Part shown: piece by piece, positions 5,154 through 55,262 of the stretch
How positions within the stretch are numbered: the stretch's first letter is position 1
Layout: every line of letters begins with the position of its first letter
DNA from: an uncultured Gemmatimonadaceae bacterium
GTDB taxonomy: Bacteria; Gemmatimonadota; Gemmatimonadetes; Gemmatimonadales; Gemmatimonadaceae
Direction of reading: 5' to 3'
Length of the DNA: 64,000 bases
Assembly: GCA_964437225.1 (NCBI GenBank)
Contig: CAYTFY010000003.1
Location: forward strand, 609,077-673,076
The notes under the pieces: model-generated
What the model saw: only the letters and a program-made list of their open reading frames with translations
Told to the model about the DNA's origin: nothing
Databases searched by the model: none
Program-made: the position numbers and the translations under genes

Positions 5154-5199
5154 ATCCGGACCTGACGCGTCCGCGCGGACCGTCGGACGAGGTGCGTGA

Positions 5200-5730: not shown

Positions 5731-5825
5731 GCTGCAAGAACCTCCACTCCAAAGGGGCAATATATGCAACCTGGTGTTAATCGAAGTCGACTACGATTAC
5801 TCATCAGGAGTCTTTCCTAAAATTA

Positions 5826-6479: not shown

Positions 6480-6662
6480 TATCGCGGGCTCGCGAAGGCC
6501 CTGTTCCTCAGCAACTATAGCGTGGCGTCAGAAAGAATTCGACTGCCGCCGTTGTTATACTATAAAATAATTGAAAGTTGTTACAGCCCATTTAGTCCGA
6601 TTTCACTTAAGAACTCTCCAGGACATAGACCGGATGATAAAATAGTACATTCTGGATAGGCA

Positions 6663-7289: not shown

Positions 7290-7398
7290 TACGCGAAGAC
7301 CGTCTGGATAATCGGGGTGGTTTTTTGCCTCTTTCAAAAAAAATGAAGCCTTTTTGTGCCGTCGGGGAACCTACATACAGAGCCCCCCGACGGTATTT

Positions 7399-8481
7399 AT
7401 GGATAACCCTGATCTAAATTCCAACTTGGAGACTCCAGACGCGCTAGTGTTGGAGTCCTACTTTGCTGGTGACTGCAGTAAATACGAAACTCAACGCATT
7501 GAGTCTTGGATCTCTGCTCATCCGCAACACCAAGACTATGTCGAGGCGATGCGGTTAGCATGGAGGCAATTAGGGCATCCAACGCAAATTCCAGCATACA
7601 ATGTGGAAGTCGAATTGTTGCGATTGAGCCGAGCGATCCAAGAGGAGTGGGATACGGTTTCGGTGCAACCTTCTCAGGTTAGTGAGTTTACCGACCGGAT
7701 ACTTCGATCGCAAACGGTTGCTGCTTCTACACGTTGGCCGTCTCGAAATGTTGTTCGTACGTTTGGGATCGCAATAGGCGGTCTTTGTACAGCGATCGTA
7801 TTGATCTTTTCGGGATCATATTGGACACGTCGCTCCGTCGACCAAACGCTCTCGCAGCAGGTGTCTACATATTCCACGACGCCAGGAAAGCAGGCGAGTG
7901 TCGTGTTGCCTGATGGAAGTACTGTGATTCTCAATGTTGATAGTCGTCTCGACGTTCCTTCGGACTATGCTACAGGAAATCGTACGATTCATTTGTCTGG
8001 TGAAGCGCTCTTCACAGTCAATCATGTGGAACATGACCCATTTATTGTCGTTGCCGGACCGAGTACAACGCGTGTGTTGGGCACCCGGTTTGTCGTACGA
8101 CACTATGTAACGGATACTATGGCGGTTATTGCTGTAGAAGATGGAAAAGTTGCGGTGGAGTCCACGGTATTGACTGCGGCGCAACAAGTCTCGGTTGGGG
8201 AGCGAGGGGCCGTATCAGATGTCACCCCGGTGCAACTAGGACGTTTTTCTTTTGCGCGCGGTGTGTTAACGCTCGACAACGTCCCACTTTCCGCGGCATT
8301 GGCCGACCTCAGTCGTTGGTATGACGCCACCCTTCAACTCGGCGATCCAGCGCTGGCAGATCGCATATTGATTGGACGGTTCACCACGGGTTCGATTTCG
8401 GATCTTGTTGAGAATCTTGAATGGGCATTCCAACTGCGTGTCGTGCGAAATGGCCGCACATTAACACTCTATCCAAAGTGA
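7399..8481 (+). CDS. FecR-family anti-sigma factor / transmembrane sensor (cassette 1)
   Basis: N-terminal anti-sigma motif (LESYFAGDCSKYETQRIESWISAHP). TM segment FGIAIGGLCTAIVLIF. FecR domain (VVLPDGSTVILNVDSRLDV...LSGEALFTV...TRVLGTRFVVRHY). C-terminal LSAALADLSRWYD. Confidence 0.85.
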   Translation: MDNPDLNSNLETPDALVLESYFAGDCSKYETQRIESWISAHPQHQDYVEAMRLAWRQLGHPTQIPAYNVEVELLRLSRAIQEEWDTVSVQPSQVSEFTDRILRSQTVAASTRWPSRNVVRTFGIAIGGLCTAIVLIFSGSYWTRRSVDQTLSQQVSTYSTTPGKQASVVLPDGSTVILNVDSRLDVPSDYATGNRTIHLSGEALFTVNHVEHDPFIVVAGPSTTRVLGTRFVVRHYVTDTMAVIAVEDGKVAVESTVLTAAQQVSVGERGAVSDVTPVQLGRFSFARGVLTLDNVPLSAALADLSRWYDATLQLGDPALADRILIGRFTTGSISDLVENLEWAFQLRVVRNGRTLTLYPK

Positions 8482-8490
8482 TGACTACCA

Positions 8491-11400: not shown

Positions 11401-11955
11401 GAGGACAAAAATCACGATGGGTTCCCCGATAACAATGAAATACTCTGGAGCGATAGTGCCGAGTATAAAGGTGTTGGAGTACCGAAATACACGTTTAATA
11501 TGGGTCACACGATGAGGCTCGGACCGTGGGTGACGGTAGCAACGACGTTTAGCTATCAGAGCCAATTCACGCAATATATGCGCGGCTATGGTCATCGGTT
11601 GTCGGCGGTATTGAACGATCCAACAATTTCGTTACGAGAGAGGGCGATTTTGCTCTATGGTAGTTGCGTAACTATAACAACGATCAACAACGATTGTGGT
11701 GGGAACATAATTCAGACCGTGTCGATTTGGCGGTTCAATGAATTCTCTGCCGCTGTGGCGATACCGGCCGAACTCACGCGTACTGTATTAGGGCCACGTC
11801 GCCTCCACATAGCCCTTCAGGGCAGGAATCTCAGGCTGTGGACCAACTATAGAGGTAAAGATCCCAACGTGAATTCATCGGTTGGCGATCAATTACTTGA
11901 TTTCGGGTCACAACCAACACCACGTATATGGCAAATCTCCCTGAGGATCGACTAA
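8491..11955 (+). CDS. SusC-like TonB-dependent transducer with N-terminal STN signalling domain (cassette 1)
   Basis: STN-like segment (VTLTVRDSTIRYIIHALAAQTNMML). CarboxypepD_reg-like segment (GTVTDSATGKGIVGVIVSIVGTKLGTTTKDEGRYML). Plug (DPIIIVDGIRVY, IETVEVLKGPSAVALYGSDAANGVIVITSKRG). Barrel end (LQGRNLRLWTNYRGKDPNVNS...PRIWQISLRID). Confidence 0.9.
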   Translation: MWRIGYYEMRSPLQTSRIFLVGSLVISTVWTSIGISILSAQATPQEATIEATSMVVGTRNAANRQQDKKVTLTVRDSTIRYIIHALAAQTNMMLVGDVTDQSLSKRISVQFNNTSLSKALATALNGTELVAGLSSDGETILIRKRGADSITTQTRSGDIVGTVTDSATGKGIVGVIVSIVGTKLGTTTKDEGRYMLGKVPAGEHRINYKLFGYKFITRVVTVVEGKSTTMHVVMAPTATQLSGVVTTATGLQRKVEVGNDITQLSVPEVIKTMPVSNMSELLATRVPGLEVAPTSGAPGAPSRIRIRGVSSINATNDPIIIVDGIRVYAAQTNYSGSSPNGVLQSSPIDQLDVNNIETVEVLKGPSAVALYGSDAANGVIVITSKRGQVGSPRWDAQAIFGVTTDPGKWPLNYWMWGHQPPFESSVMQCTVGTTWCVQDSLARYQLLNDPATTVFARGSTQEYRTNVSGGRSGMTYVLSASSSRELGALKLPDADVAVLRRLGATIPAWQRRPQQNSVQSVQATVGLDIGSNSDVLLTNSVTQNTNLTTPWSSAIEVTKRMPLDAQSVAEIPDSLWGSGALYEIPDFRAKTTTKVLGFRNSVNLNTRWPYAITTQATTGVEVRRGQDITKLERGACMEAGFARACGPTEFNGYYNVGRQNSLIPTVNLRASQQQALNRWLSLRTSVGMNYTSDRFDYVYMYGSDIPAGANSPDLAVSRSGNENRSVQTTAGGYVEMLIGVADRFFIPLALRNDAGNALGPQVTVKLPKLSWSYLMSEEPWFQDIPVLRKLSVFRPRVAYGQAGVQPKVGGGTRTYMFNNGVIDGSTVPYVTISSPGNSKLLPERTRELEGGFDAEVGQWINLGLTWYHKKTYDMLTTEPTAASAGFGERPATYNLGDVLNTGFEGHLEGTLVDKRMVRVDTRLSISGNRNRLLRLGVNTEDRARQTNSGASQNRVGYPLNGVWVYPIVAVEDKNHDGFPDNNEILWSDSAEYKGVGVPKYTFNMGHTMRLGPWVTVATTFSYQSQFTQYMRGYGHRLSAVLNDPTISLRERAILLYGSCVTITTINNDCGGNIIQTVSIWRFNEFSAAVAIPAELTRTVLGPRRLHIALQGRNLRLWTNYRGKDPNVNSSVGDQLLDFGSQPTPRIWQISLRID

Positions 11956-13295
11956 TGCGGCGATGGTGGACGTGTGGGACGCACTATATGTATTTACTCG
12001 CGCCAGTTGTCCTTCTCACTGCCTGTTCGTTGCAGGACTTGGTCGGCAAAACCGGCCAGGATAGCTACGTCACAGATCCCAACGCAGTGAAGGATAAAGC
12101 GGGAGCGATCGCACGCTATAACAGTGTGCCAATTTTGTTCACGGCGATGATGGGGAGAGCCACACTCAGCCCTCCATCTTATATCTTCGTCTCAGGTGTC
12201 TTGTCTGATGAACTCAAGATGAACACCGCGCCCTTCGTCGATTTTCCGTCCGTGTATTTCGATCAGTTGGACAGTCGGACTGTGGCGGGGGCGGTTTTAG
12301 TTCCTTCTTCGCCGTACTCCGCTCTTCACGAGGTTCGAGGACGAGCCGTAGAAGGAATTGGAGCGTTACGAAAATATGCTTCGGATATGCCGACGTCCTA
12401 TGTCGGCTACCTTTATGCGCTCAAAGCGTATGCTGAGCTGTTGCTTGCGGAGTTTTACTGTTCGGGGATTCCGCTTAGTGAGCCGGTGTTTGAAGGAGAC
12501 TTTTACTACACGCCTGGCTATTCTAGGGATAGCGTCATGCGGCACGCAGTGGCCTTGTTCGATACGGCGGCAACACTGGCAACGGATAGTGCGAGAATTC
12601 TCCATTTGATTCGGGTTGGGAAAGGGCGCGCGTTACTCTCGTTGGGTGAATACGCACTCGCAGGCGCTGCGGTGAAAGAAGTCCCGACTGACTACGAGTA
12701 TGCGCTCCAGTATTCGTCCGAAGTGAAGAAGTGGGGCCCTTCGGCGACCGGTAATGTGGCCAATATGGCTGATAACGAAGGGGGGAACGGGGAGCCATAT
12801 CGGTCAAGTGGAGATCCGCGACTTGCTCTTCCAAGAATCCGGGACTCTCTCGCATCGCTCCCAGTAGCCACTGGGGTTGAGGCACGATTGATCGAAGCGG
12901 AGACGGCCCTGCAGACAGCAGGCGAAACGCCGGCGTGGTTGAAAATTTTAAATGCGTTGCGAACGACGTGCACCGACGCTCTAACCTGTCCGTCCCCAGC
13001 GCCTGCGGGCACCGGAGGCATCGCGGGACTGCCACCTTTGACAGACCCTGGGACGCGAGACACACGGATCGATCTAGTGTTTCAGGAGCGCGCGTATTGG
13101 ATGTATTTGACGGGACATCGCCAAGGTGACTTGCGGCGGCTCGTGAGGGTGTATGGACGACCACAGGGAACCGTCTATCCCGTGGGAGGATGGGGGAGAG
13201 AGGGAATAACAGCCTATGGACAAGATATCTCTTCACCGGTCCCAGCAACTGAACAACAGTATAATCCTCTCTTTCAGGGTTGTCGAGATGATTAA
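11955..13295 (+). CDS. SusD/RagB-like outer-membrane lipoprotein (cassette 1)
   Basis: The start overlaps the SusC stop (TAATG). Lipobox in MRRWWTCGTHYMYLLAPVVLLTAC. SusD-like helices (YALKAYAELLLAEFYCSGIPLSE and ERAYWMYLTGHRQGDLRRL). It sits immediately downstream of SusC. Confidence 0.75.
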   Translation: MRRWWTCGTHYMYLLAPVVLLTACSLQDLVGKTGQDSYVTDPNAVKDKAGAIARYNSVPILFTAMMGRATLSPPSYIFVSGVLSDELKMNTAPFVDFPSVYFDQLDSRTVAGAVLVPSSPYSALHEVRGRAVEGIGALRKYASDMPTSYVGYLYALKAYAELLLAEFYCSGIPLSEPVFEGDFYYTPGYSRDSVMRHAVALFDTAATLATDSARILHLIRVGKGRALLSLGEYALAGAAVKEVPTDYEYALQYSSEVKKWGPSATGNVANMADNEGGNGEPYRSSGDPRLALPRIRDSLASLPVATGVEARLIEAETALQTAGETPAWLKILNALRTTCTDALTCPSPAPAGTGGIAGLPPLTDPGTRDTRIDLVFQERAYWMYLTGHRQGDLRRLVRVYGRPQGTVYPVGGWGREGITAYGQDISSPVPATEQQYNPLFQGCRDD

Positions 13296-44960: not shown

Positions 44961-45547
44961 TTGAGGGGCGGTGGGCTCGAAATAGGAGTAATGAGTGACA
45001 ATTAACGTTAACTTGTCGGATTTCAGAGGGGAGATTGAGCATCGGCGCTGGTCTCTTCGTGACTCGATGTCCGAAATTTGTATACATTTTACGGACAATG
45101 TCTACTCCATCTTTGAAACGCGATATTGAGGCTCGTATGACTCAACAAGCGCCATTTGGTGTTTGGACACCCGCCGATTTTCTTGATCTTGGCCCGCGGG
45201 TGCGATTCGCCGCCTGTCGCAGGGCATACGTGATCTGCTCGTCTGAAAATCTCGACCGCTTCATCGTGCATCCTCCAAATATGTGGTTGAGGAGCCCGAC
45301 GGAATTTACTCTAGTTTAGCCGTGTCCCGCTTTCCGGGGGAACGTCATGGGGGAGTCGTGAAAGCGTGGGAAGAGAGTGGACTACTTAAATCGTTGAGCT
45401 CACGCGAGGCCGTTGGGTAACGTTACCCGTCCGATAGAGTTGTATGTCACCTCAGGCAGGGGATTCTGACTTGTACATAGTTGTTACGTCTATTTTGCTA
45501 TGCTAAAATGGCAAAATCCGTTACAAAAACACGAGCCCAAGCGCGGT

Positions 45548-45778
45548 TCATTCATTATGCATAGTCCTCAGGTACAACTGCTCGACTTTCGTACGCGCCC
45601 ACGGCGTCTTTCGTAGAAACTTGAGACTCGACGCGATACTGGGATCGCTCGTAAAACACCGAATATTGATGTGTTGACCCATTTCATCCCAGCCTAAAAT
45701 GCTCACTAATTCAGTCAGCATCCGCTTCAGCGTGATGCCATGCAGCGGATTGTTTGTTGTACTATGCGAATCGGCCAT
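45548..45778 (-). CDS. VF530/DUF2132-family small DNA-binding protein
   Basis: The 76-aa ORF ([61 protein letters not shown]) matches the remembered DUF2132 consensus almost along its full length. Confidence 0.75.
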
Positions 45779-46195
45779 GATACAATTTGTACGAATTTAC
45801 GCTTGGGCGCATCTCCCACTCGTCGCACTATCGGGATTTCGGAGGCCATCGAAGCCGAGATCCCGATGATCATCGGAAAACTAGGAAGATAAAGCGCTCG
45901 ACAGGCCTCTCTCATCCGTCTCGTACGGGTCCCATAGGCCGTCACCACATAATTCATAAACAGATTGCCGAAATCAGTGGATTTCTAGGGGCTGAGGTGT
46001 GAGAATCTTGGCGTAATGAGTCGATCGTTATGCTGGGCAATAGTAGTAAACGATTGCTGATCGAAGCATTCGCAGGAGACTAACGCTATGTGGCCGAAGC
46101 GGAAGCTGTTTCCGCAATGGTGTATCTTGCCATCGATGTATGGGTCGAAAGCCACTTTGCGGAATGGATTGCGAAGTATCTCGAGGTGAGGTTCA

Positions 46196-47140
46196 CTATT
46201 TCCAACTCGGGCTATCCATCTCCGTCGCATACAGCAGTGGGACGACTTGTCCTGTCGTCACGCGGACCAATACCAAATACGTCCCTTCGACCGCCCCATC
46301 GTAGGTGTTACCGTCCGGCCCGCCATTTAACACTAGCCACCGACTATCCGGCGACCACGCGATGGACTGTCGCGCAAAGCGTTGCCCGTAGGCCTGCCCC
46401 AGGGATACAATCGCGCGCCGGTTCGATCCGTCAGGATTCATGACCATGAGCGTGCCATCAGATGCCGATAAGTACGCTACATATGCCCCGTTCGGCGACC
46501 ACGAAGGATAGACGCCGTTGACACCGACCGGCTTTAAGGTGCCGGTCGCGACGTCGATGATGCGGATCATCGAATATCCCGCGCTGTCCGTGACGAACGC
46601 GACCCGGCCTCCATCGGGCGAGGGGGCCGGGCTGAACGCCGGTACCTGTGCTTGCGACTGGGCCATGGAGAAAGCCGTCGCGTTCGAACCCTGTGTATTT
46701 GTGCGGTACAAACAATAATTGCTCTCCGAGCACTCCGTGGTGTGCCCGGCGAAGTAAACCCACTTGCCGTTGGCGGTCGGCATCGGTGCGTCCGCATTAA
46801 TAATGCTGGGTGCTGCGGAAGTCAGGAACGGCGTACCAGGCCTTATCACGCGAGCGTTCGCATTCGTCCGCATCAGGGTGATCGGTCCAGATGCGAGTGT
46901 TTGCGTATACACAATGATATTCGTTCCCGGAATTCAGCGCGGGGAACCAAGGCTCGCCCCTGTCACTGCCGTGACAACCGTGTCCATATTGGAACCGTCC
47001 AGATTGAATGCGACGATGTACGGTCCCCGTCGCGCAACGAGACGTGATGTTGGGGACGGATTCTCTATTGGTGCCGTCCCATCGTTTCCGCATCCCAGGC
47101 TCAGGAGGCATACCACTACCGATAAGGAAAGTCTTTTCAT
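46196..47140 (-). pseudogene. PD40/TolB-like beta-propeller lipoprotein interrupted by an in-frame TGA (46934-46936)
   Basis: Lipoprotein signal MKRLSLSVVVCLLSLGC. PD40 repeats (SPAPSPDGGRVAFV, YPSWSPNGAYVAYL, SIAWSPDSRWLVL). ORFs 46934-47293 and 46196-46912 are in the same frame and are separated only by the TGA in ...GSPR*IPGTNIIVY. Confidence 0.7.
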
Positions 47141-47146
47141 GGCTGA

Positions 47147-47269
47147 AAAATACCAAAATCCGACGCGGTCCGTGTAATTGCGGACTGGATCCAGTTCTAT
47201 AACACGTGTCGTCGATCCAAGTGTTGGCGATGAAAAACCCCTGTCGAAGCGTTCGCTTTCGCAGCTTGA
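47147..47269 (+). mobile_element. Degenerate C-terminal remnant of a DDE (rve-type, IS3/IS481-like) transposase
   Basis: The translation is AVRVIADWIQFYNTCRRSKCWR*KTPVEAFAFAA. The integrase-core tail consensus is ..W..FYN..RPH..LG..TP.E.F. The remnant has an internal stop and no upstream catalytic domain. Confidence 0.5.
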
Positions 47270-47356
47270 TCTGTGCAGATTCTGCAGGGTCACTACAATA
47301 GGCAGAGAGTCTTGTTTGACGAATGATCGTTCATAAACATCCTAGCACCGACCGCT

Positions 47357-47808
47357 ATGCCGACCGAGCAACACCTCGAGATTTACCGACAACACCGTGC
47401 CGTACAGGAGAAGTATGTCTACTCCTTGCTGGCGTCCGTCGGGGCGGCAATCGCGCTTGCGGTCACTCGAACGCAGGGCGCGAGCTTGGCTTGGTCACAA
47501 ATGCCGCTCGCATTTGCGGTCCTCCTTTGGGGCTCAGCTTTTACTTTGGGTGTCGGCATCTCGTTTATGTTGAGTCCACCCTTTTTGCAAATGCTGCACT
47601 GCTGAAGGTTGAAGCCGGTGAACATCCGGAAGTAGGTCGCCATCCTCAACTCATGGCGGCAGCGAATGAAGGCATACGCTCTGCCATCGAGTCCAACTCA
47701 AATTGTGCCAGTCGGTTCGCGCGCTTGCAGTTTCGCTTTCTTGTATTGGGTGCGATAAGCTACCTCGGCTGGCATGTCTATGAAATGTTTCTTCGTGCCG
47801 TCTCGTAG
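47357..47808 (+). pseudogene. Small 3-TM membrane protein, apparently frameshifted near 47575-47590
   Basis: The frame from 47357 gives MPTEQHLEIYRQH... followed by two clean TM helices, then stops at 47605. The +2 frame continues with a plausible coding tail (LKVEAGEHPEV...LQFRFLVLGAISYLGWHVYEMF) to 47808. The junction lies at a ccaccctttttg homopolymer run. Confidence 0.35.
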
Positions 47809-47959
47809 GTGGGTCCGCTTGACCATTGCAGTATAATTATACGAAGGTCTCGACGTTCGATGTGCTCAAGCGGAAAACGGAAGAAAGCGTAATCGAAGCC
47901 TTCGAAATAGCGTGCCTGCTAACGGGCAAAGGATTCCATTAGCCTATATCTAGTAAATC

Positions 47960-48397
47960 ATGAGTGATCTAATACCAGGTCTAGTTGGCGCAATTGTAGG
48001 ATATATGCTGGGTTGGGGTAAAGAGTTCCTTGATCGATCAAGAAAACGCCGTGCGGTTGCAACGGCCTTGATCCTTGAGATTGAGCGACATATTCCGGTG
48101 CTTCAGCGAGCGACTACACGCGGGTGGGTGGTACCAGATGACTACGGGATGCTCTTATCTCCGATCACGGATCGAATATCTGACTGGGTAGATCTATTTG
48201 ATGCGAACACGGTCGAACAGGTACTGCAATACCGAGCGGTGTTTGCGAGTGTTCATGAGCATGCGACGATAATATTCAATCGCATGGGGCAACAAGTTGT
48301 CTTCCCGCATGGAGCGCCAGGATACCAGAAGCACATTGCGGATTGCGTAGATCTTGCTGAAAAGGCGGTGAAAGCGTTGCGTCATGAACGAGGCTGA
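47960..48397 (+). CDS. Hypothetical protein with N-terminal TM helix
   Basis: 145-aa ORF starting MSDLIPGLVGAIVGYMLGW, followed by a soluble helical region. No recognisable family. Confidence 0.5.
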   Translation: MSDLIPGLVGAIVGYMLGWGKEFLDRSRKRRAVATALILEIERHIPVLQRATTRGWVVPDDYGMLLSPITDRISDWVDLFDANTVEQVLQYRAVFASVHEHATIIFNRMGQQVVFPHGAPGYQKHIADCVDLAEKAVKALRHERG

Positions 48398-48570
48398 ATC
48401 CGCATAGCGTTTTAAGAGTACTCAACAATCTCCTTCATAGTTACAGCTTTTCTTCAGTAGCTCGCCAGGGAGAAAAAACGGACGCGATGGCAGTCTTCCC
48501 TGGCCGTCTTAGGCGTCAGAAGTACAAACGGCTAGGTGAAGTCCGAGCCTAGCGATCGGACGTGGACTTT

Positions 48571-49761
48571 TTAGCTCTGAAAGAGAGAAGTCGATAGCTC
48601 GGTCAATGATGCTGCTTTTTGGGGAGGTCTGACTTTTGAAAGGGAAGAAGGACAATCTTTTCTACGCAAAGCTTGGGAGGTAAATTCGACAATTCTCTTA
48701 TCCGTCATCAAAACATCTACATAAGGAAGATAGGCAATGTGTTGAATGTCAAGTTGGTCACTGGCAACCGGAGTGTTGGTTGCTTTTGCCATCTGTAACT
48801 CTACCGCGCCTGCTAGCCACGTACCGGGGCACTGATCGATTTGAACAAGCGCTGCTATAGAGTCAATCGTAGATTCCTCGGTGACATTAAGAAAGTTACG
48901 GAGTATTTCCTGAACATTTTTACGAAATACTGACTCCTGAATTAAGATGTCAATGTGTTTCTTCTGCGACGTACTGCTGTCCGCGATCGGAAGTAGCGAT
49001 TCCAGACCCTTCCTTGGGCCCAGGTCAGTCATTGTTTGAATAATATCCCGGCCAAGCTCCTCTGTGAGCTTTTTTAGCTGGGTGATCGCTGCGGCCGGAA
49101 GAAGTTGTTCTATACCTTCCCAAACAGAATTGTCCTCAAGAGCTTTGCGGAACATTTCATTTGCTGTCGCAACATCAAAGTCACTGGGATACTCTTCCGG
49201 GATTTCAGAGAGACGCGGTCGTTCATACTGCTGTTCTTTAGGTCGTACCCTTGCACGTGCTCCAGTAGTAAGCGCGCTGCGCAGAAACCGTGATGTATGG
49301 GCGAGAACGGGATCTTCGATGATTACGAGCTGGTCGATTTCCTCGGCTGTTCTTAATACCCCAGGAAAAATGTCAATCCAGCGAGTAATTGTTTCCACTA
49401 AGTTAGGCCCGGTGCCTCCGAGGATGCCAAGTTCGCAATAAGCACGGACGATTTCTCGGCCAACGAGTAGGCGAGGACCTAATGGCTCGACTTCCTCGGT
49501 AGGGAAATCAAGAACTAGAGGAGCGAGGCTTTGGAAAGTTTTTCGGCGGGCTTCCCGAGTGATCTGGTCAGCATGCTGACGTAGTTCCATCAAATGCGTA
49601 AGAGTAATAACTAACGCATTAGAACTTTCTTTCCATCGCTTTATAAACTTGCAAAACTCCCGCTGATCTTTTGCTGCAGCAGTTGCTAGTAAATGATGGT
49701 GGCTTGTGTCAAGATAAATGAGTCGCGCTCTATGCTCGGGAAATAATATAGGCTTGGTCAT
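48571..49761 (-). CDS. Hypothetical 396-aa protein with PIN-like N- and C-terminal motifs
   Basis: A clean ORF with N-terminal RLIYLDTSHHHLL...LTHLMELRQ and C-terminal IAYLPYVDVLMTDKRIVEF. These resemble the first and last acidic-residue strands of PIN-like nucleases, separated by a long insert. The assignment is tentative. Confidence 0.6.
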   Translation of the reverse strand: MTKPILFPEHRARLIYLDTSHHHLLATAAAKDQREFCKFIKRWKESSNALVITLTHLMELRQHADQITREARRKTFQSLAPLVLDFPTEEVEPLGPRLLVGREIVRAYCELGILGGTGPNLVETITRWIDIFPGVLRTAEEIDQLVIIEDPVLAHTSRFLRSALTTGARARVRPKEQQYERPRLSEIPEEYPSDFDVATANEMFRKALEDNSVWEGIEQLLPAAAITQLKKLTEELGRDIIQTMTDLGPRKGLESLLPIADSSTSQKKHIDILIQESVFRKNVQEILRNFLNVTEESTIDSIAALVQIDQCPGTWLAGAVELQMAKATNTPVASDQLDIQHIAYLPYVDVLMTDKRIVEFTSQALRRKDCPSSLSKVRPPQKAASLTELSTSLFQS

Positions 49762-49933
49762 TTCTGGGTGGAGTCAATGTTGCTCATGTGCTATTGTTCA
49801 AAATTGGATTAACACAACGCCCCACAGAGTATAACACTCACCTGTCATCGCGGCTGAGCACCACCTCGCTGGTGCGGAGTGGCCAAGTTTAGGCAGGTCG
49901 CGCGCCACTGCATTCCGCTCCTAAGTGGTTCTC

Positions 49934-49977
49934 AAGGAGAGCTCTTTAAGCTGCTCTCAGCTAAAAGAGCTCTCCTT
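49934..49977 (-). terminator. Strong hairpin immediately downstream of the 3-TM gene
   Basis: A perfect 14-bp inverted repeat: aaggagagctcttt (49934-49947) / aaagagctctcctt (49964-49977). An inner agctg/cagct pair is also present. No clear U-tract follows, so intrinsic-terminator function is uncertain. Confidence 0.4.
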
Positions 49978-49983
49978 CGAAGG

Positions 49984-50802
49984 CTACCTATTAAGGCTTA
50001 ATAATCCGCCCACGACGGTCAGCGACACCAGTATCGTCACCACGTGAAGTGCTAGAAGGGCGTTCGGCACCCAAATCTCACGAGACGTAAAGGAACGGTA
50101 AATCTTGGGATCTTCTCCCCTTCCAAGAGCTTCCCACTCCGCGGCATAAATCGAGGCCTTTAGATAGCGCTCGATATAGTTGATAACCTGAAACTTACCT
50201 CGATTCAATTGTCCGAACGATGAGATCAAACTTCGCCATGCACCGCATAAAATGGCACCGGCCACAGCCAGTACAGCTACACCAAGTCCGCCCATTCTGT
50301 TGCCACCGGAGTTCTGAACAATCAATCCCGAAGCGGTGAGGAGTGCTCCATTCATCGTCAGAAAAAAAGTATTTACCGCCTGCCGGCGACCAACAAGGCC
50401 CTCCGAGCTTTGAACCATAATCTTGTAGAGATCAAGAGCTTGCTGAGTCGCGGCGTCGCCTTCAGGGGGGCCGAACGGGAAAAGAACTTCGGCGAAACGC
50501 GGTCGAGACGGAGTGCGTATCCCGAGTTCATCTGCAGCGCGGCGAATGGCAACGACGAAGATCCGATCCTCGTCTTGAACGGAGCTTGGTAATTCGTCGT
50601 AAGCGACCAGAGAGGCGTGAGTAGAATCGCGCTCAGCCATCCAAGCTGACCATGCGTCGTGAACATCACTTTCGCTCACATCACACCCTTTAGAGCGAAG
50701 GAGAATAGCATACGTTCGAAGCAAAGCTTCGGCATGGCCATTCGGCATACGCTCATCTGGGATGTGCTTTCGGATTCGGGCGGCGATATCGTCGAGGTAC
50801 AT
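49984..50802 (-). CDS. Membrane protein: soluble N-domain with RyR-like motif plus three C-terminal TM helices; candidate effector partner of the TIR gene
   Basis: 272-aa ORF starting 6 nt after the TIR-like gene stop. N-domain VHDAWSAWMAERDSTHASLVAYDELPSSVQDEDRIFVVAI. TM segments FFLTMNGALLTASGLIV, GLGVAVLAVAGAILCGAW and ALLALHVVTILVSLTVVGGLL. Confidence 0.7.
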   Translation of the reverse strand: MYLDDIAARIRKHIPDERMPNGHAEALLRTYAILLRSKGCDVSESDVHDAWSAWMAERDSTHASLVAYDELPSSVQDEDRIFVVAIRRAADELGIRTPSRPRFAEVLFPFGPPEGDAATQQALDLYKIMVQSSEGLVGRRQAVNTFFLTMNGALLTASGLIVQNSGGNRMGGLGVAVLAVAGAILCGAWRSLISSFGQLNRGKFQVINYIERYLKASIYAAEWEALGRGEDPKIYRSFTSREIWVPNALLALHVVTILVSLTVVGGLLSLNR

Positions 50803-50808
50803 AGATGA

Positions 50809-51192
50809 CTAAACCCAGGTTCTTAACCACTTCGCTATCTGATCGAAGTTCCAGCGGATGACGTCACTGCTTGGAATACCTGTCGGAATTGAGTGCGACT
50901 TATCCTTGTTGATCTGAATGCCAAAGAGGTAATGACCTTGTCGGGTCGTCTCCGCGATCTCCCAAAGTACTGCGTCCGATTTCCAAGTCGTGGGGCCAAT
51001 CAAGACGATGGTTCCTTTCGTTATGCCAATCCTCTTAGAGCATTCAGTCTTCCATTGGGAATCAAAAGGACTTTTCACAGAGTAGTCGTAAAACTCGATG
51101 TTGTTTCGGTCATCTCTAGCATGCTGCGCTAGAAAATCGCGCGCCCATTTGTCCTCCATTTCGAAGCTGATGAATGCACGAGGTGTAGCCAT
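50809..51192 (-). CDS. TIR-like (DUF1863 / ThsB-like) protein
   Basis: Start at MATPRAFISFEMEDKWARDFL (ATG at 51192, with GGAG 7 nt upstream). GTIVLIGPTTWKSDAVLWEIAETTRQGHYLFGIQIN matches the ThsB pattern ..VLIG..T..R.WV.YEI......IIGI.IN, including the glutamate. The ORF-track N-extension to 51501 is Arg-rich and rejected. Confidence 0.7.
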   Translation of the reverse strand: MATPRAFISFEMEDKWARDFLAQHARDDRNNIEFYDYSVKSPFDSQWKTECSKRIGITKGTIVLIGPTTWKSDAVLWEIAETTRQGHYLFGIQINKDKSHSIPTGIPSSDVIRWNFDQIAKWLRTWV

Positions 51193-52197
51193 GGATAATC
51201 TCCGTTGTCCTGTTTTGAATTGGATGCGAGGGACCGCCGACTGAGCGGCCCCGTAGACCCGCAATGGGGGTGGCACTCTAACGATATTTGGACTGCAAAG
51301 CTTCAGTTCATATAAGTGATGTAAATTAGCCCTCTTCAAAATATATGCTGAACGCCGCCTGCAGTCGCATCGCAGTTTGCTCGGAGCGTCCCTCCCCCAG
51401 AGAGTGCGCGAACTGCCTGCATTCTTGGTTGGGTGACCGAGCGAAAGAATCGGTCTCCGAACGGTCCCGGTAGGCGGGTGATAGTGACCGTTGGACGTCA
51501 AAAATCATCCAAATCTGGTCCTTGCCTGGGCTGACCGCATTGAAGGCCATGGGCATTGGGGCTGGAATCGTAGTGTTCTTAAAGGGTGTTTTGGGACCGT
51601 ATATTTAAGGCGTCGGAACCAAGGCGTATCCAACCTACCTGACAGTGAAACAAGGTCTAGGAACACATGGGCGAAGGTGGGTCTTACGCCTGGTGAGCCA
51701 TTTCTGACGCAGAATATGCCTTAGAAAAAGTTCGTCAATTGCCAGGAATCTGCACTCGTGACGGTGATTCATTCACAATGGCAGAACGCACTGGATGAGC
51801 GATCTCATGGAAGATTGGTCGGCCATTCGATTGGCGAACCGCTCAGGCACTCATTGATGAGGATCGGGTTGAACGCTAAAAGATCAATCGCGTCGGTGGG
51901 TCTCTTTCACTCAACATCGGAAGACAACAGGGACCGCTTCCAATAATCAGCAAATCCCAGAAATCCGCAGCGGACGTTTTGGGCAAGTTACAAATACGGC
52001 AAGGCTGGATTGGTACCAGCGATCTCTTACAGCCTCTGGATGAGAAGAGTCTCTCGTCCTCGCTAATGTTTCCGTCGATCGAGGCATGGGGCTCTCGAGT
52101 CCGTGGCACGGGGGGCTACCATAAGAGAAATCCCGACGAAAAGATATGAAAATATCAAAATTGTGATGTTTGTGTAAGATATTTAAGAAATAAAAAC

Positions 52198-52230
52198 TGT
52201 GTTGACACGATAGTGTGTACAACACATTAT
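52198..52230 (+). promoter_or_regulatory. Candidate promoter with overlapping operator palindrome upstream of the XRE gene
   Basis: TTGACA (52202-52207), a 17-nt spacer, then CATTAT (52225-52230), 6 nt before the ATG. There is an imperfect palindrome tgtgttgacac (52198-52208) / gtgtacaacaca (52215-52226). The host promoter consensus is unknown. Confidence 0.3.
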
Positions 52231-52236
52231 TGTGTT

Positions 52237-53076
52237 ATGCGAAATCGTGTTCGTGACCTTCGTACTCGACTCGGGTGGTCCCAAAATGAGCTTGCCAAAG
52301 CCGCAGGAACAAGTCAGCAGCAAATTCAACGTATTGAAATTGGCGATCAAAGCGTCAAGCTTGACCTTGCTATACGTCTCGCAACTGCTCTAAAAGCCGA
52401 CCTGACAGAAGTATTTCCGCAAGCAAAGCAAGCGCTTGGAAGCTCGCGTCCTCATAACGTCGCAGACCTTACACAGTTAGCCGACAATGACAAAAAGCGT
52501 CGTGCTCTAGAAGATGCAGGACTTGATACCGATAGTGATTCTTGGTCTTTAGTTATCGGCTTAAGAACCGGAGCGAAAGTTCATTTACCAATTAGTACTG
52601 AAGAGAAAAATCGGTTTAGACATAATTTGATATCGATAGAACCAAGTGCACCATTTTTTGTATTCGATTCAGGCCATTTTCATGTTGGTATCAACCTCCT
52701 TGAAATACAGTATGTGCAGGAGTTATGGGAGCCAGATCCAACAATTAGTGAATGGGCCACGCCCAAATTTGATAAAACGGATATCACCGTCTATCTAAGA
52801 GGAAGAGCCGAACCATTGTTGTTCAGTGGTAGTCCAGATTGGGAAGACAGTTCAGATGAAGAAGATATCGGTCAATTCGAAAGTATATTCCAGATAGCTC
52901 AGACATTCATCGAAAAATACCACTTTTTTGACTTCCTTGACGGTGATGGTGAGTCCGTGCATTTACGAGCGCAGGATATAGAACTTTTAGCGATTCCTAT
53001 GTGGTTGACGGATAAAGAGTTTATTGATGATGAGTTAGATAAGGACGATAGTGAATCAAGCAACATCGACGAGTGA
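52237..53076 (+). CDS. XRE-family HTH protein with an uncharacterised C-terminal domain of about 210 aa and an acidic tail
   Basis: MRNRVRDLRTRLGWSQNELAKAAGTSQQQIQRIEIGDQSVKLDLAIRLATAL is a canonical HTH_3 domain. The C-terminus is unassignable and ends DDELDKDDSESSNIDE. Confidence 0.8.
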   Translation: MRNRVRDLRTRLGWSQNELAKAAGTSQQQIQRIEIGDQSVKLDLAIRLATALKADLTEVFPQAKQALGSSRPHNVADLTQLADNDKKRRALEDAGLDTDSDSWSLVIGLRTGAKVHLPISTEEKNRFRHNLISIEPSAPFFVFDSGHFHVGINLLEIQYVQELWEPDPTISEWATPKFDKTDITVYLRGRAEPLLFSGSPDWEDSSDEEDIGQFESIFQIAQTFIEKYHFFDFLDGDGESVHLRAQDIELLAIPMWLTDKEFIDDELDKDDSESSNIDE

Positions 53077-53095
53077 GATGCTGGAATAATAGCAT

Positions 53096-53827
53096 ATGAT
53101 GATACTTGAATCAGTATTGACGTGGCTTCGTGACCCTATCTGGCAAAGCTTAGGGGTATTAATCGCAGTTTTTGCTGCAGCTTGGACAGCAGGGCGACGA
53201 GATAAGAAGCAGATATATTACGAGACTTTTTCATCTCCAGTTGTGGTTCCTGATGCTGGATATGGAGATCGAGTGAAAGTATTGTTTGATGAGAAAGAAG
53301 TCTCGAATGTATGGACTGGAAGATTTTCTATTCAAAACAGAGGAAACATCCCAGTCAAATCCGGGGATTTTGAACAAAATATTGTTTTAACTGTCGGCCC
53401 AGAAAGTCAGTTTTTGAGTGCCGCTATTGGTCGAGTATCGGAACCAACTCTGAATCCAAATCTTGAGTTTGTACCAGGGAGTTCACAACTATCTATCCGG
53501 CCCATGTTACTTAATCCAGGAGATCGCTTCGAGATAAACTTTGTTTCAGAGGGAGTACGTCCTACGATCAAAGTAATGTCAAGAATTTCTGGTATCAAAT
53601 CTATAAAGCCAGATCCTGCGTTTGCTCGGGATCTATTCTTCAATAGCATTCTAATATGTAGTATCTCTCTAGGGATGACTTTTTATATAGATAGAAACCC
53701 ACAAATGCGTGACGCTGTGGGCGGCAACGGCGTGCTCGTTTTAATCGCATCCGTAACCGTAATAGGTATATTTCTGTCGAAGTCTTCATTTTCTGAATGG
53801 AGACGTAAGGAGCGTTTTGATAGTTAA
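53096..53827 (+). CDS. Hypothetical membrane protein (1 N-terminal and 2 C-terminal TM helices around a beta-rich domain)
   Basis: 243-aa ORF starting 19 nt after the XRE gene. TM segments SLGVLIAVFAAAW, FFNSILICSISLGMTFYI and GVLVLIASVTVIGIFL. The coding sequence is A+T-rich. Confidence 0.65.
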   Translation: MMILESVLTWLRDPIWQSLGVLIAVFAAAWTAGRRDKKQIYYETFSSPVVVPDAGYGDRVKVLFDEKEVSNVWTGRFSIQNRGNIPVKSGDFEQNIVLTVGPESQFLSAAIGRVSEPTLNPNLEFVPGSSQLSIRPMLLNPGDRFEINFVSEGVRPTIKVMSRISGIKSIKPDPAFARDLFFNSILICSISLGMTFYIDRNPQMRDAVGGNGVLVLIASVTVIGIFLSKSSFSEWRRKERFDS

Positions 53828-54222
53828 TTTCAGAGCCGTGTAGTGTTTATCGATACACTCGGTGCTCACTTTGGACAGTGTTGTATCATCACTACATACT
53901 CATCGCATTTGTTATCACAGAGCGAAGCGTGATCCCAATCTGAACAGCTGAGCGTAATTAACTTCGATACGTGGAACAGACCCTGATATCATCGTACGAC
54001 TAGAAAACGATCCCGTGTATTGTGACTACCTATTATACAGATAGCTCAATGTAACGACCCAGCCATTTTTGCACAGGTCAGGCGGCTAATCTAAATACTT
54101 CAGCCGAGGTTTTCATCGCCAGCGTCTCGCGTCTGCCCGGGGCTCCGTCCTGGCCTCGCTCTTATCGAGCACCGCGTTCATGGATGAGCGCGTTTGCCTT
54201 CCCGGCGTTTGCTCGTTGTAAA

Positions 54223-54252
54223 GGCGGAAGCGGTGGGACTTGAACCCATCAC
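54223..54252 (-). other. tRNA 3'-end fragment (T-arm plus acceptor 3' strand), no matching 5' half
   Basis: The minus strand reads GTGATGGGTTCAAGTCCCACCGCTTCCGCC. This has a GGGTTCAAGTCCC T-arm followed by a 7-nt acceptor strand, a discriminator and CC. The complementary 5' acceptor strand (cttccgc on +) is absent within the next 100 nt. Confidence 0.55.
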
Positions 54253-54483
54253 TCCGTTGCTAGTTTTCAGGTGCATTGATGGGGTTTGCATTTAGTTTTG
54301 TCCTCTCGCATTTTCCTCTACACAGTCCGCGAGTTCACCCATGAATCGCGTTTATGCTGGGGGCATGGAATGCATTCGAGGCTGTTAGAGCACGGGAAAG
54401 GTACTTTCCAGTTGTCCATACCGTCTAGTTACTGGCTGAGTCAGGAGTACCTTCGCGCACAGAGACTCGCTTTAGAAAGGAAA

Positions 54484-54941
54484 CTAAGAAACGGACCCTA
54501 AAGGATTTCCGGTAGGTGATGCTGTGACAATTTGCCCTATTCCTGCCCTATCTGTGCTCAATATGCCCAATCGTATGGAAATATCAACGACGCTCGAAAA
54601 TGGTCGTGCCAGATCATATTGCGAAAAATCTACTTTCATCTGCACCGAGATATCCGATCCGCGTCCAATATGCCCCATCCGTGGCTCACGTACTTTTGCG
54701 ACGGATTCATGAAACACAACATCTGGCGTGGTGAGCCAACTCGGAAGTTGTATATATCTCTTTCGAAGCTGTCGAAATATCTCCTTGCGTGCTTCGACGA
54801 GATACCCATTCACCGTACTCGCACTGACCTGCATGATCATTGCTGCTGCATCATGCGACCGTTCTGCCACACCACATAACAAGAAGGCCTGTCGACAGCG
54901 CAACGGTAACCGTTGAATAATATTATGGAACCCGCGTTCTT
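54484..54941 (-). pseudogene. Sigma-70 region-4-only ORF; likely truncated sigma-factor remnant
   Basis: IQRLPLRCRQAFLLCGVAERSHDAAAMIMQVSASTVNGYLVEARKEI is a region-4 HTH. The homology runs upstream of the only available start (TTG at 54903) to a stop at 54940-54942. No region 2 is present. Confidence 0.4.
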
Positions 54942-55262
54942 ATGTATAGATGTGCGCTACGCACGTCTATACATAAAATCAATAATTCTTACATCGTTCA
55001 CTTCGCAAATACGTGATTCGCGTGCAGATTACAAGTATTCTCCTAAGCTGATGATTCACATTGGATACTGACCCATTCACGGCATGGGGTGCTAGTGATA
55101 GCAAACGGTGAGATTTATAACGTTGACGATGTGTTGCTATGGAGTAGCTTATAGTGAGACCACTCGAATACATTCTGGGAGCATCCCGCGCATAGAAAAC
55201 ATACATTGCCGTGTTGATCTCATTATTAATGCTTACATCTGTTCGCGTGAGAGGGAACTCGT

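Follow-up and report, generated by a model that had tools for sequence, protein, structure and literature searches.

The analysed window, a stretch of 64,000 nucleotides from an uncultured Gemmatimonadaceae bacterium, contains repeated nutrient-uptake gene cassettes, two of which (cassettes 3 and 4) are separated by the spacer at 44961-55262 described here (Table 1). Its limits are those proposed in the initial annotation, as the last gene of cassette 3, encoding 536 residues, extends to 44960 and the ECF sigma gene belonging to cassette 4 starts at 55263. The mixed strand orientation ascribed to these approximately 10.3 kb is evident in the gene coordinates, as are the long non-coding gaps, which extend over 587, 417, 1044 and about 1435 bp. 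Recognisable genes, with pseudogenes counted in, occupy about 6.0 of the 10.3 kb, corresponding to a coding share of about 59%.

Table 1. Features of the spacer between cassettes 3 and 4 (positions in the window).
Feature	Position	Strand	Evidence or remark
71-bp stretch directly after cassette 3	44971-45041		82% identity to C6:148103-148172
VF530/DUF2132 DNA-binding protein gene, 76 aa, intact	45548-45778	-	Pfam PF09905, E 6e-34
Doc/Fic-type toxin gene, C-terminal remnant, ~33 codons	46090-46188	+	67% identity to end of ORF C3:143851-144345
PD40/TolB-like beta-propeller lipoprotein pseudogene	46196-47140	-	one in-frame TGA, 46934-46936
IS3-family transposase 3' tail and right terminal repeat (ends ...TACA)	47177-47298	+	71-78% identity to intact IS3
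Frameshifted gene, ~150-aa 3-TM membrane protein, unnamed family	47357-47808	+	homologue match in two frames
145-aa ORF, hydrophobic N-terminus	47960-48397	+	no family match in libraries searched
396-aa gene, very rare family	48571-49761	-	5 homologues among 5.8 billion proteins
Hairpin, 20-bp arms, 95% complementary	49934-49977		just downstream of effector gene
Effector gene, 272 aa, DUF7701 + 8xMP	49984-50802	-	Pfam E 1.6e-30 and 3.8e-33
ThsB-type TIR gene, 127 aa	50809-51192	-	PF08937, E 1.2e-14
1044-bp gap between divergent TIR and XRE genes	51193-52236		without credible ORF
XRE-type HTH protein gene, 279 aa	52237-53076	+	G+C 43%, GC3 0.35
Membrane protein gene, 243 aa	53096-53827	+	phage-family match phrog_29378, E 3.6e-11
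Second IS3-family tail, ~75 nt and terminal repeat	54048-54124	-	81% identity to C7:6673-6747
tRNA-like 3' fragment, unconfirmed	54224-54253	-	GGTTCAAGTCC; T-loop motif and acceptor-like strand
Sigma-70 region-4 remnant, first 45 codons of ORF; region 2 missing	54484-54903	-	PhyR_sigma-like, E 2.7e-8
115-bp element with 17-bp perfect palindrome	54922-55036		97% identity to C6:145792-145906

Four of the five scars of gene decay that had been listed for the region were verified. The frame of the PD40 gene, about 315 codons long, is open but for a single stop, the transposase fragment, with a frameshift or stop inside, matches an intact IS3-family element of this genome (C7:5591-6760), the sigma remnant comprises region 4 only, and the frameshifted membrane gene matches one 153-residue homologue in two frames. 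In the latter, residues 3-65 of frame 2 correspond to residues 4-66 of the homologue (60% identity) and residues 70-161 of frame 1 to its residues 60-151 (53% identity), with the frameshift placed near 47530-47555; the family counts 371 clusters at 50% identity and no Pfam family was found for it. Both this frameshift and the TGA of the PD40 gene could be assembly errors. The fifth scar, described as a tRNA 3' fragment, stands as a motif resemblance only: ARAGORN and Rfam did not call a tRNA at this position, and neither this genome nor 300 genomes from the phylum contained a tRNA with a matching 3' end. Beyond those listed, we found two further scars, the toxin tail, whose related ORF bears the HG..DGNKR motif of Fic/Doc proteins as read from its sequence, and a second IS3 tail that is inverted relative to the first and faces it. 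As in the intact copy, both stubs retain the transposase C-terminus W..YN.(R)RPH..L...TP.E.F and the terminal ...TACA, but unlike IS3-family elements they are diverged, with 75-120 nt left of each, and do not contain a transposase. The two tails are old and unlike each other, with 56% identity between them compared to 64-71% to the intact copy. Further solo IS3 stubs are located in another inter-cassette spacer (3594-3655 and 5798-5867). At the right end of the spacer, the sigma remnant scores just under the cut-off for Sigma70_r4_2 and shows no BLAST similarity to the cassette sigma factors, and both copies of the neighbouring palindrome element precede an ECF sigma gene by about 200 bp.

Among the genes of the spacer, only the PD40 pseudogene has paralogues in the genome (30% identity), and with a G+C content of 58.6% and a GC3 of 0.70 it is probably native. 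The 396-residue protein found no match in Pfam, NCBIfam or PADLOC. Its family shows invariant YLDTS (N-terminal) and D..H..LPYVD..D.R (C-terminal) motifs in the alignment, and of the 21 best fold matches of its model more than half are PIN domains, although at E 0.4-3 and a pLDDT of 69. The two motifs and the top matches, which include the PIN domains of SMG6, VapC and Utp24, resemble VapC-like nucleases, whereas in the present protein the domain is interrupted by about 250 inserted residues. These features make it a candidate PIN-like nuclease, split by a helical insert, rather than an established member of that group. The XRE-type protein, preceded by a promoter-like site (TTGACA-17-CATTAT, 52202-52230), contains a C-terminal domain that is unassigned (about 200 residues) and an acidic tail. 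Its homologues, 11 among 5.8 billion proteins, adjoin Prim-Pol, resolvase and PLD-helicase genes, a set that is joined by methylase genes when the neighbours of the 396-residue homologues are counted in. The adjacent 243-residue membrane protein, with a hydrophobic segment near the N-terminus and two near the C-terminus, is encoded at a G+C content of 41.5% and a GC3 of 0.33.

The TIR gene, whose start was set from homologues as the mechanical 230-residue ORF extends too far 5', precedes the effector gene by 6 bp, and the glutamate of its WEIAE motif aligns with that of YEIMK in ThsB of B. cereus. The effector, whose homologues are named 'RipA family octameric membrane protein' by NCBI, combines DUF7701 at the N-terminus (residues 2-90) with a membrane domain of the 8xMP family at the C-terminus (residues 123-261), which has about three transmembrane helices; its monomer model is of moderate confidence (pLDDT 72.9) and found no match in the PDB. 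The hairpin downstream is probably the terminator of this operon. On the other side, the 1044-bp gap gave no family, RNA or tblastx match. The pair, always with its genes adjacent, is distributed over more than 10 phyla and plasmids at 56-91% protein identity, yet of 60 other genomes in this family only two contain 8xMP. Of 23 fused-type loci (56-78% identity), 21-22 have the two genes side by side; the loci belong to Gemmatimonadota, Acidobacteriota, Proteobacteria, Bacteroidota, Verrucomicrobiota, Planctomycetota, Chloroflexota, Actinomycetota, Spirochaetota and others. In the nearest relatives (87-89% protein and 75-77% nucleotide identity) the 6-bp spacing is kept, the neighbourhoods are unrelated, and the similarity is limited to the two coding sequences. 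Two plasmids, a conjugative one of Paenarthrobacter and one of Synechococcus, also carry TIR-8xMP pairs, beside IS21 and ISAs1 elements. Elsewhere, the pair adjoins BREX, DISARM and Hachiman genes, with strong PADLOC matches to BrxC, PglX, BrxHI/HII, HmaA, DrmA/DrmD, Old and DruM among its neighbours. In 29 of 52 actinobacterial 8xMP-DUF7701 loci there is no recognisable TIR directly upstream, thus 8xMP is not strictly TIR-dependent. Since the GC3 of the pair (0.52-0.57) is host-like, the case for its foreign origin comes from its distribution alone. It is a conserved, mobile unit and the clearest import in the spacer.

The G+C content of the spacer (49.3%) is lower than that of the flanking cassettes (54.7% and 55.4%) and the genome (53.9%), so that it ranks among the lowest 3.2% of the 10.3-kb windows of the assembly. 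With 42.8%, its 2-kb core at 51.9-53.9 kb belongs to the lowest 0.27% of windows of this length and is one of 13 such low-G+C clusters. Windows of 400 nt drop to 40.0-42.7% at 52.4-54.0 kb, in a core of 40-43% at 52.2-54.0 kb, and the 35-45% counted by hand near 52.5-53.2 kb was thus about right. The cassette line of about 60% near 16.7 kb used for comparison was unrepresentative, as the mean at 16-17 kb is 54.8%. The deviation in tetranucleotide composition is modest (86th-94th percentile), with a genome-typical left third (44.9-47.9 kb). With cassette genes at a GC3 of 0.48-0.62, the genes of the spacer fall into three tiers of 0.33-0.35, 0.42-0.45 and 0.52-0.70.

The region had been described as a horizontally acquired, partly eroded defence or mobility island. 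Parts of it are indeed foreign and linked to mobile elements, and it holds one credible defence module, but the findings speak against one island. A single integrative element that had entered at a tRNA gene by means of a tyrosine integrase, later lost this enzyme and eroded, would have left the tRNA-like fragment as right and a weak repeat after cassette 3 as left attachment site. This is quite unlikely. It would account for the T-loop and acceptor-like 30-mer, for the resemblance to it of about 13 of 15 nucleotides at 44968-44982, as read from the sequence, and for the lower mean G+C content of the whole block. However, neither an integrase or recombinase nor a credible att repeat was found in 44961-55262, the tRNA searches were negative, and the left repeat sits within the 71-bp stretch that is paralogous to a sequence elsewhere in the genome and was thus not made by integration. 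The heterogeneous composition and gene histories, the native-looking left third, the unlike old IS3 tails and the fact that the TIR pair resembles its closest relatives exactly as far as the two coding sequences extend likewise oppose one acquisition. The right ends of the two IS3 tails, which face each other and enclose exactly the genes without genome paralogues, could instead reflect a composite transposon, where two inverted copies brought the 6.75-kb segment 47299-54047 and subsequently lost their bodies by deletion. We consider this unlikely, in light of the closer relationship of each tail to the intact copy than to the other, the at least two compositional classes of the enclosed genes, the solitary travel of the TIR pair and the single occurrence of cargo genes elsewhere, the similar solo stubs in another spacer, and a target-site duplication that was not identified.

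It is very unlikely that the region is an ordinary native spacer, whose dip would reflect A+T-rich intergenic and lightly expressed DNA with nothing acquired horizontally. Such an origin would suit the composition of the left third, the PD40 gene with its paralogues, the GC3 of the TIR pair and the small non-cassette genes that separate other cassettes too, but not a low-G+C core that is coding and falls below the GC3 range of cassette genes, an effector conserved across unrelated phyla and rare in its own family, or the presence of IS3 stubs and a toxin tail; nor was a conserved order in most relatives seen for any island gene searched. A chimera, in which the assembler joined a low-G+C piece from another organism of the metagenome, appears highly improbable. 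The assembly is a bin of 161 contigs and 5.27 Mb, compared to 2.0-4.0 Mb in relatives of the genus, and has two tmRNA genes. Yet the piece resides in a contig of 673 kb with cassettes on both sides, so that two false joins would be needed, the estimated contamination is 0.55%, and the composition shifts gradually with no single sharp break.

We thus favour, at a probability of about 0.7, a long-lived variable region between cassettes, in which small pieces of DNA were inserted, rearranged and decayed at different times. The spacer is a patchwork of broken genes, IS stubs and a few intact imported genes, each intact module with its own history. It comprises three layers, of which the left, at about 44.96-47.15 kb, looks native and contains the VF530 gene, the toxin tail and the PD40 gene killed by one TGA. 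The second layer, at 47.3-51.2 kb between the two IS3 stubs, contains the frameshifted membrane gene, the 145-residue ORF, the PIN-like candidate and the intact TIR-effector operon. The third and presumably most recent, at 52.2-53.8 kb, is the most A+T-rich and holds the repressor-like XRE gene and the membrane protein gene, both with relatives among phages and further mobile elements. Orthologous cassettes or the same site were not found in any relative, so that the insertions in this scheme are putative. Like defence islands and variable hot spots, the spacer clusters defence-type, toxin-antitoxin and mobile-element remnants between conserved blocks, at lower G+C and with decaying genes. Unlike these, it contains one recognisable defence system only and no integrase; a PADLOC scan of the spacer returned the TIR, as a weak match, and an HTH domain as sole hits. 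It is thus ordinary in kind, yet deserves annotation.

The distribution and the neighbours of the TIR-effector pair point to a Thoeris-like abortive-infection module, which most likely works as Thoeris does. Upon phage infection, the TIR protein with its retained catalytic glutamate would turn NAD+ into an ADP-ribose-derived signal. This signal may be sensed by the cytoplasmic DUF7701 domain of the effector or in pockets between its protomers, whereupon the putative ring of three-helix 8xMP subunits would disturb the membrane and cause growth arrest or cell death before the phage completes its cycle. In their compilation of putative Thoeris TIRs (Table S1), Yirmiya et al. (bioRxiv 10.64898/2025.12.03.692087) include the TIR subfamily found here; proteins about 80% identical to the present TIR are labelled 'DUF2270 - Type V' there, a type consisting of ThsB and ThsF/DUF2270. 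None of the 30 operons that these authors tested has an 8xMP-DUF7701 effector. As in type V, the present operon has two genes, a short TIR of the ThsB type coming first and a small effector second, the latter with three membrane helices and a predicted ring, but here the effector belongs to Pfam 8xMP and carries the additional N-terminal DUF7701. It matched none of the validated Thoeris effector families: PF10028, the DUF2270 family, gave no hit even at E 10, and profile-profile comparison gave a probability of only 0.3-8.6%. In Thoeris type II, a TIR is combined with a Macro-TM effector and the signal is His-ADPR, whereas type VII combines a TIR with SLATT and employs cADPR. The common scheme, where a TIR-made signal acts on a cytoplasmic sensor joined to membrane helices that kill or arrest the cell, would also apply here. 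In contrast to both types, no Macro, SLOG or SLATT domain was detected in the present effector, where the candidate sensor is DUF7701, which weakly resembles RyR-repeat domains.

The block between cassettes 3 and 4 occupies exactly the interval proposed in the initial annotation, bounded by the end of the final cassette-3 gene (44960) and the start of the cassette-4 sigma gene (55263). The cassettes of the window are repeated and all located on the + strand, each comprising an ECF sigma factor, a FecR-type anti-sigma factor and a TonB-dependent receptor with a CarboxypepD_reg domain, accompanied by unassigned proteins and two to three TldD/PmbA-like proteins. One 536-residue family of cassette proteins shows a striking lineage-specific expansion in this genome (G000, about 50 copies) and a single genome of the same genus (G011, 48 copies), with zero copies in the 29 other relatives searched. 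No orthologous cassette or shared site was found in a DNA search of 30 relatives, a protein search of relatives and a metagenome scan. The assembly, in which the window spans C3:609077-673076, consists of 161 contigs with a total of 5.27 Mb and a G+C content of 53.9%, and it is larger than same-genus relatives (2.0-4.0 Mb). Two tmRNA genes with different tags were called by ARAGORN on contigs C8 (4603-4965) and C11 (26874-27236), together with a tRNA carrying a CTA anticodon that the program labels as Pyl (C8:80491-80566). The assembly may represent a mixed bin, or one of the tmRNAs may be carried by a mobile element.

The low G+C content ascribed to the block applies to its average but not to its entire length. 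With 49.3%, compared to 54.7% and 55.4% in the flanking cassettes, it ranks among the lowest 3.2% of the 10.3-kb windows of the assembly. Its left third (44.9-47.9 kb) is nevertheless ordinary for the genome, with tetranucleotide distances between the 4th and 52nd percentile and a G+C of 58.6% in the PD40 gene. A mild deviation is observed at 47.9-50.4 kb (46-49% G+C, 86th-89th percentile in tetranucleotide distance), and the extremes are confined to about 2 kb, with values as low as 40-43% between 52.2 and 54.0 kb, in agreement with the earlier spot estimate for this region. This 2-kb core (42.8% G+C) belongs to the lowest 0.27% of the assembly's 2-kb windows and constitutes one of 13 such clusters, some of the others adjoining copies or fragments of IS3 elements on contigs C7 and C2. 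The value of about 60% previously quoted for a cassette line exaggerates the contrast, as the mean at 16-17 kb is 54.8%. The profile is not flat, which is also reflected in three tiers of G+C at third codon positions (GC3): a lowest tier containing the genes of an XRE protein (0.35) and a 243-residue protein (0.33), a middle tier with those of a 145-residue (0.45) and a 396-residue protein (0.42), and a top tier comprising the TIR, effector, VF530 and PD40 genes (0.52-0.70), to be compared with 0.48-0.62 in cassette genes.

Located features of the block between cassettes 3 and 4 (window positions)
Feature	Position	Strand	Description
VF530 gene	45548-45778		Clear match, E 6e-34
Doc/Fic toxin tail (newly found)	46090-46188	+	Encodes the last ~33 residues
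PD40 pseudogene	47140-46196	-	Frame open except for a single TGA at 46934-46936
IS3-family transposase 3' end and terminal repeat	47177-47298	+	Likeness to the element on contig C7
Effector gene	49984-50802	-	272 residues: DUF7701 at 2-90, linker, 8xMP at 123-261; about three hydrophobic helices
ThsB-type TIR gene	50809-51192	-	127 residues
Second IS3 tail (absent from the initial annotation)	54048-54124	inverted	
Sigma remnant ORF	54484-54903	-	Sigma region 4 in the first 45 codons

Four of the five signs of gene decay listed in the initial annotation are found in the block. The reading frame of the PD40 gene, whose product would carry PD40/TolB-like repeats behind a lipoprotein-type signal sequence, contains the proposed in-frame stop, and the sigma remnant is truncated as described, showing no trace of region 2 and no similarity to the cassette sigma factors in BLAST. 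The frameshift in a membrane gene is reflected in its relation to homologues: its 82-residue ORF in frame 2 has 371 homologue clusters with a typical length of 146-154 residues that match the first 66 residues only, and the remainder of the closest homologue (P0139, 153 residues) matches frame 1 at 53% identity, illustrating that the single-base shift near 47530-47555 is real in the assembly. This family of proteins with three transmembrane helices has no Pfam model, and one of its members adjoins a GmrSD-type gene. A homology to 8xMP was rejected, as hhalign assigns the read-through protein a probability of 0.4% and the likeness concerns topology only. The newly found Doc tail shares 67% identity with the terminal part of an ORF with a Fic/Doc motif on the contig of the window (C3:143851-144345). 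An AbiEi-like fragment suggested by eye at 45098-45200 has no match in Pfam or PHROGs and was discarded, tblastx searches of the four gaps of the block against all fetched loci revealed no remnants, and promoter and terminator scans gave counts no higher than chance.

The transposase tail recognized before was tentatively assigned to the IS3 family by comparison to an intact element with OrfA/OrfB and a matching ...WYNHRRPHQALAMKTPAEAF end on contig C7 (5591-6760). Together with the second tail, which it faces across 47299-54047, it might have delimited a composite element. Both tails end in ...TACA and resemble the intact copy at 78-81% over the BLAST-aligned core. Only the last 75-120 nt are left of them, with no surviving transposase. 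They share 56% identity with each other and 64-71% with the C7 copy, and we thus regard them as old remnants of independent origin and not as a matched pair. The spacer that separates cassettes 0 and 1 also contains tail and head fragments of the same family (3594-3655 and 5798-5867), and the inter-cassette spacers seem to be recurrent landing sites of IS3 elements. Within C7:1-8500, a stretch of 39% G+C abuts the intact element and a relaxase-like gene (7421-8503). This region probably belongs to a plasmid or integrative element, from which the stubs may have originated.

Paralogues of the two block borders are found on contig C6. The 71 bp following cassette 3 (44971-45041) are 82% identical to C6:148103-148172 and the 115 bp at 54922-55036, upstream of the cassette-4 sigma gene, are 97% identical to C6:145792-145906. 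On C6, the two segments are found in the same order and orientation at a distance of only 2.2 kb. They enclose an MFS transporter gene together with a sigma region-2 fragment, and another sigma-FecR-receptor set follows downstream. This arrangement, a paralogue rather than an empty site, may illustrate the look of a less expanded spacer. A perfect palindrome of 17 bp (TTATGTATAGATGTGCG cta CGCACGTCTATACATAA) is present in the 115-bp element, which precedes an ECF sigma gene by about 200 bp at both of the otherwise unalignable loci. This element might serve as a common operator or promoter, have arisen by recent gene conversion or represent a tiny mobile element.

The described features bear on the origin of the block, which the initial annotation had interpreted as a horizontally acquired and partly eroded island of defence or mobility genes. 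In favour of this interpretation, the block is foreign in parts and contains one defence-related module. However, no integrase or recombinase domain was detected in its ORFs of at least 130 residues or in the small ORFs scanned, and the proposed 3' fragment of a tRNA, which would have pointed to an attachment site, failed in every test: the 30-mer was not called by ARAGORN or Rfam, and a cognate tRNA was found neither among the tRNAs of the genome itself nor in a pattern scan of 300 genomes. We therefore consider its tRNA origin and a reading as tRNA-att site unsupported. The proposed left-hand repeat resides within the 71-bp stretch with its paralogue on C6. Combined with the dissimilarity of the IS3 stubs, the three tiers of composition, the native-looking left third and a TIR-effector pair that travels on its own, these results are better accounted for by a mosaic spacer, which would have gathered small independent insertions and deletions over time. 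The initial observation has proven largely right and its interpretation half right, as the block resembles a mosaic hot spot rather than one acquired island. For the genome, a 10-kb stretch of 'hypothetical' genes has been turned into a gene-by-gene map, and the spacers between cassettes emerge as regions where the organism tolerates insertions and gene decay. As a kind of feature such a spacer is ordinary, and its module of TIR, 8xMP and DUF7701 is the one item worth following up.

The start of the TIR gene was defined by its homologues, which begin with MA.PRAFISFEMED and thus indicate a 127-residue protein instead of the 230 residues of the mechanically called ORF, which is too long. The protein matches the Pfam family ThsB_TIR (PF08937) with an E-value of 1.2e-14 and 54.9 bits (cut-off 21.2) and the ThsB models of PADLOC with 7e-6. 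In an alignment with ThsB from B. cereus, the Glu of the motif LWEIAET pairs with the Glu of VRYEIMKS, which we take to be the catalytic residue, and it is kept in nearly all TIR homologues as WEIAE, WEIQE or WEVGE. The stretch LIGPTTWKSDAVLWEIAET, which aligns with LIGSQTFNRRWVRYEIMKS of the B. cereus protein (PDB 6LHY, 9B7D), has thus retained the conserved Glu. The effector gene starts six bases downstream. Its product shows no match to the PDB at an E-value of 0.001 or better in Foldseek, and even at a threshold of 10 a Pfam search returned DUF7701 and 8xMP only.

Homologues of the effector are widespread, with 510 members in the protein collection at up to 91% identity, some of which carry the NCBI name 'RipA family octameric membrane protein'. 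When one genome per species was scanned, 75 loci were identified. In 23 of them both domains are fused in one protein as in our case, with effectors of 56-75% identity from MAGs and isolates of at least 10 phyla, and a TIR gene (53-78% identity) is found directly upstream on the same strand in 21-22 of the 23. In the split-type loci of Actinomycetota (L044-L095), where the domains are encoded separately, a TIR gene adjoins on the same strand in 23 of 52. There, the genes of TIR, 8xMP (~160 residues) and DUF7701 (~96 residues) form three overlapping ORFs in reverse of the fused domain order. The remaining 29 loci have no recognizable TIR gene directly upstream, and the 8xMP membrane module may be able to function on its own or with other partners as well. 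The best match in the scan is a Gemmatimonadota MAG, which for a horizontally mobile gene is not taxonomic evidence. Within the family of the organism itself, the distribution is patchy, with 8xMP present in 2 of 60 other genomes. In the nearest relatives with known context (87-89% identity), the 6-bp spacing is kept and a nucleotide similarity of 75-77% extends from the TIR start codon to the inside of the effector gene. Their flanks are unrelated, containing a HEPN_RiboL-PSP and a GH18 gene in one case and a HATPase_c_3 gene in another. The similarity is thus confined to the pair, which moves as a unit of 1.2 kb. An annotated TIR gene and a gene encoding nothing but 8xMP overlap by 4 bp on two plasmids, one from Synechococcus and a conjugative one from Paenarthrobacter, and these pairs adjoin ISAs1 and IS21 elements. 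Among 135 neighbouring ORFs from 25 loci, PADLOC detected the defence proteins BrxC (E 0), PglX, BrxHI/HII, HmaA (E 0), DrmA/DrmD, Old and DruM, besides type II methylases and further ThsB genes.

The described organization is reminiscent of Thoeris, a system for which a recent preprint has catalogued 29 putative configurations and validated types V-XI (bioRxiv 10.64898/2025.12.03.692087, December 2025). The pair has a ThsB-type TIR domain, the aligned Glu and a conserved adjoining effector gene. In Pfam, its effector matches none of the validated families, which are SIR2-SLOG, Macro-TM, caspase, DUF2270, DUF6650, SLATT, CMP hydrolase, ion channel and HIT. TIR domains of the same subfamily are contained in cluster 2635319349 of Table S1 of that study (e.g. 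QPRAFISFEMEDKWARDFLSQHAKD...WEIAETIRQDHYIFGIQINKDK), where they carry the label 'DUF2270 - Type V' in two rows and 'Caspase - Type IV' in one (bioRxiv 10.64898/2025.12.03.692087). ThsF, the type V effector, is described there as a membrane protein with three helices, for which a ring with charged pockets is predicted, and was activated by 3'cADPR in one tested case (bioRxiv 10.64898/2025.12.03.692087). A comparison of 8xMP by hhalign to five DUF2270 proteins of the same phylum yielded a probability of 0.3%, which increased to 8.6% (E 0.0039) upon inclusion of 70 more diverse 8xMP sequences, in an alignment that is collinear over 92 columns across the first helix and two transmembrane helices. 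On the basis of its neighbourhood, the pair may already be included in 'type V', its effector being at most a candidate member of the ThsF family. Since PF10028 (DUF2270) has no match anywhere in the genome, the profile probability is low and the effector is absent from the 30 operons tested in the preprint, we have filed the pair as Thoeris-like in its logic, a putative role suggested by domains, conservation and neighbourhood. The names DUF7701 and 8xMP and their accessions do not appear in the supplements of that study, and a search of the available literature for 8xMP, DUF7701 and RipA octameric membrane protein returned nothing relevant, matches to 'RipA' referring to RIPA buffer. For the field of phage defence, the module is of interest as a compact and highly conserved unit, which spans 1.2 kb, is distributed over more than 10 phyla and also on plasmids, and has no member with this effector among the operons tested in this systematic investigation.

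DUF7701 is fused to the N-terminus of the effector, encoded by a separate downstream gene in Actinomycetota, or absent in some plasmid copies. A profile of 21 fused proteins shows a weak relation to RyR-repeat domains in the PDB, with E-values of 3.5e-4 for a tandem chimera and 0.3-0.66 for single bacterial domains, and the Pfam RyR model is not reported for DUF7701. The domain matches phrog_26560 (E 8e-12), and tblastn located it at 37-45% identity in 40 Streptomyces phages of ~125-133 kb, including Annadreamy, Paradiddles and Limpid, as stand-alone proteins of 89-224 residues whose genes are found ~99-108 kb into the genomes (records H1-H15). The predicted structures of three of these proteins match residues 1-90 of the effector model at ~2 Å with a probability of 1.00. 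Its fused, separate or absent state and its occurrence alone in phages of the clade with the split form make DUF7701 a natural candidate for the role of signal receptor or regulator, which would have been copied by phages as decoy. We consider it rather unlikely that the full scheme holds, in which TIR and 8xMP would constitute a distinct Thoeris type, a RyR-like helical DUF7701 its signal receptor or regulator and the stand-alone proteins of about 40 phages decoys or sponges. In light of the permuted order in Actinomycetota, the plasmid copies lacking DUF7701 and the phage-borne proteins, the idea of a sensor and its decoy is cheap to test.

For the remaining intact genes, functions are suggested by domains, conservation and neighbourhood. 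The XRE protein (279 residues) has 11 homologues, which on one contig neighbour a PLD-helicase, an N6_N4 methylase and MazE, on a second Prim-Pol/PriCT and on a third a resolvase. Its pairing with the downstream gene, encoding the 243-residue membrane protein, is not conserved among these homologues. The latter matches phrog_29378, and no phage record was retrieved by tblastn. For the 396-residue protein, five homologues were found among 5.8 billion proteins. In their alignment, YLDTS close to the N-terminus and D..H...PYVD....D.R close to the C-terminus are invariant, with D18 and D338/D354 as conserved acidic motifs. PIN domains account for more than half of the top 21 Foldseek matches of its model (pLDDT 69), although these are weak (E 0.4-3, TM-score <0.4), and the gene may thus be PIN-like. 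In the closest homologue, an overlapping gene follows that encodes a 242-residue protein with a hydrophobic N-terminus, a partner that is missing in the block. Another homologue (L097, positions 1-13158 of a JGI metagenome contig) is part of a run of 16 small genes on the same strand, separated by gaps of 100-300 bp and including DUF4917, DUF2971, Hypoth_Ymh and DUF3800, a layout reminiscent of a defence island or of the cassette array of an integron.
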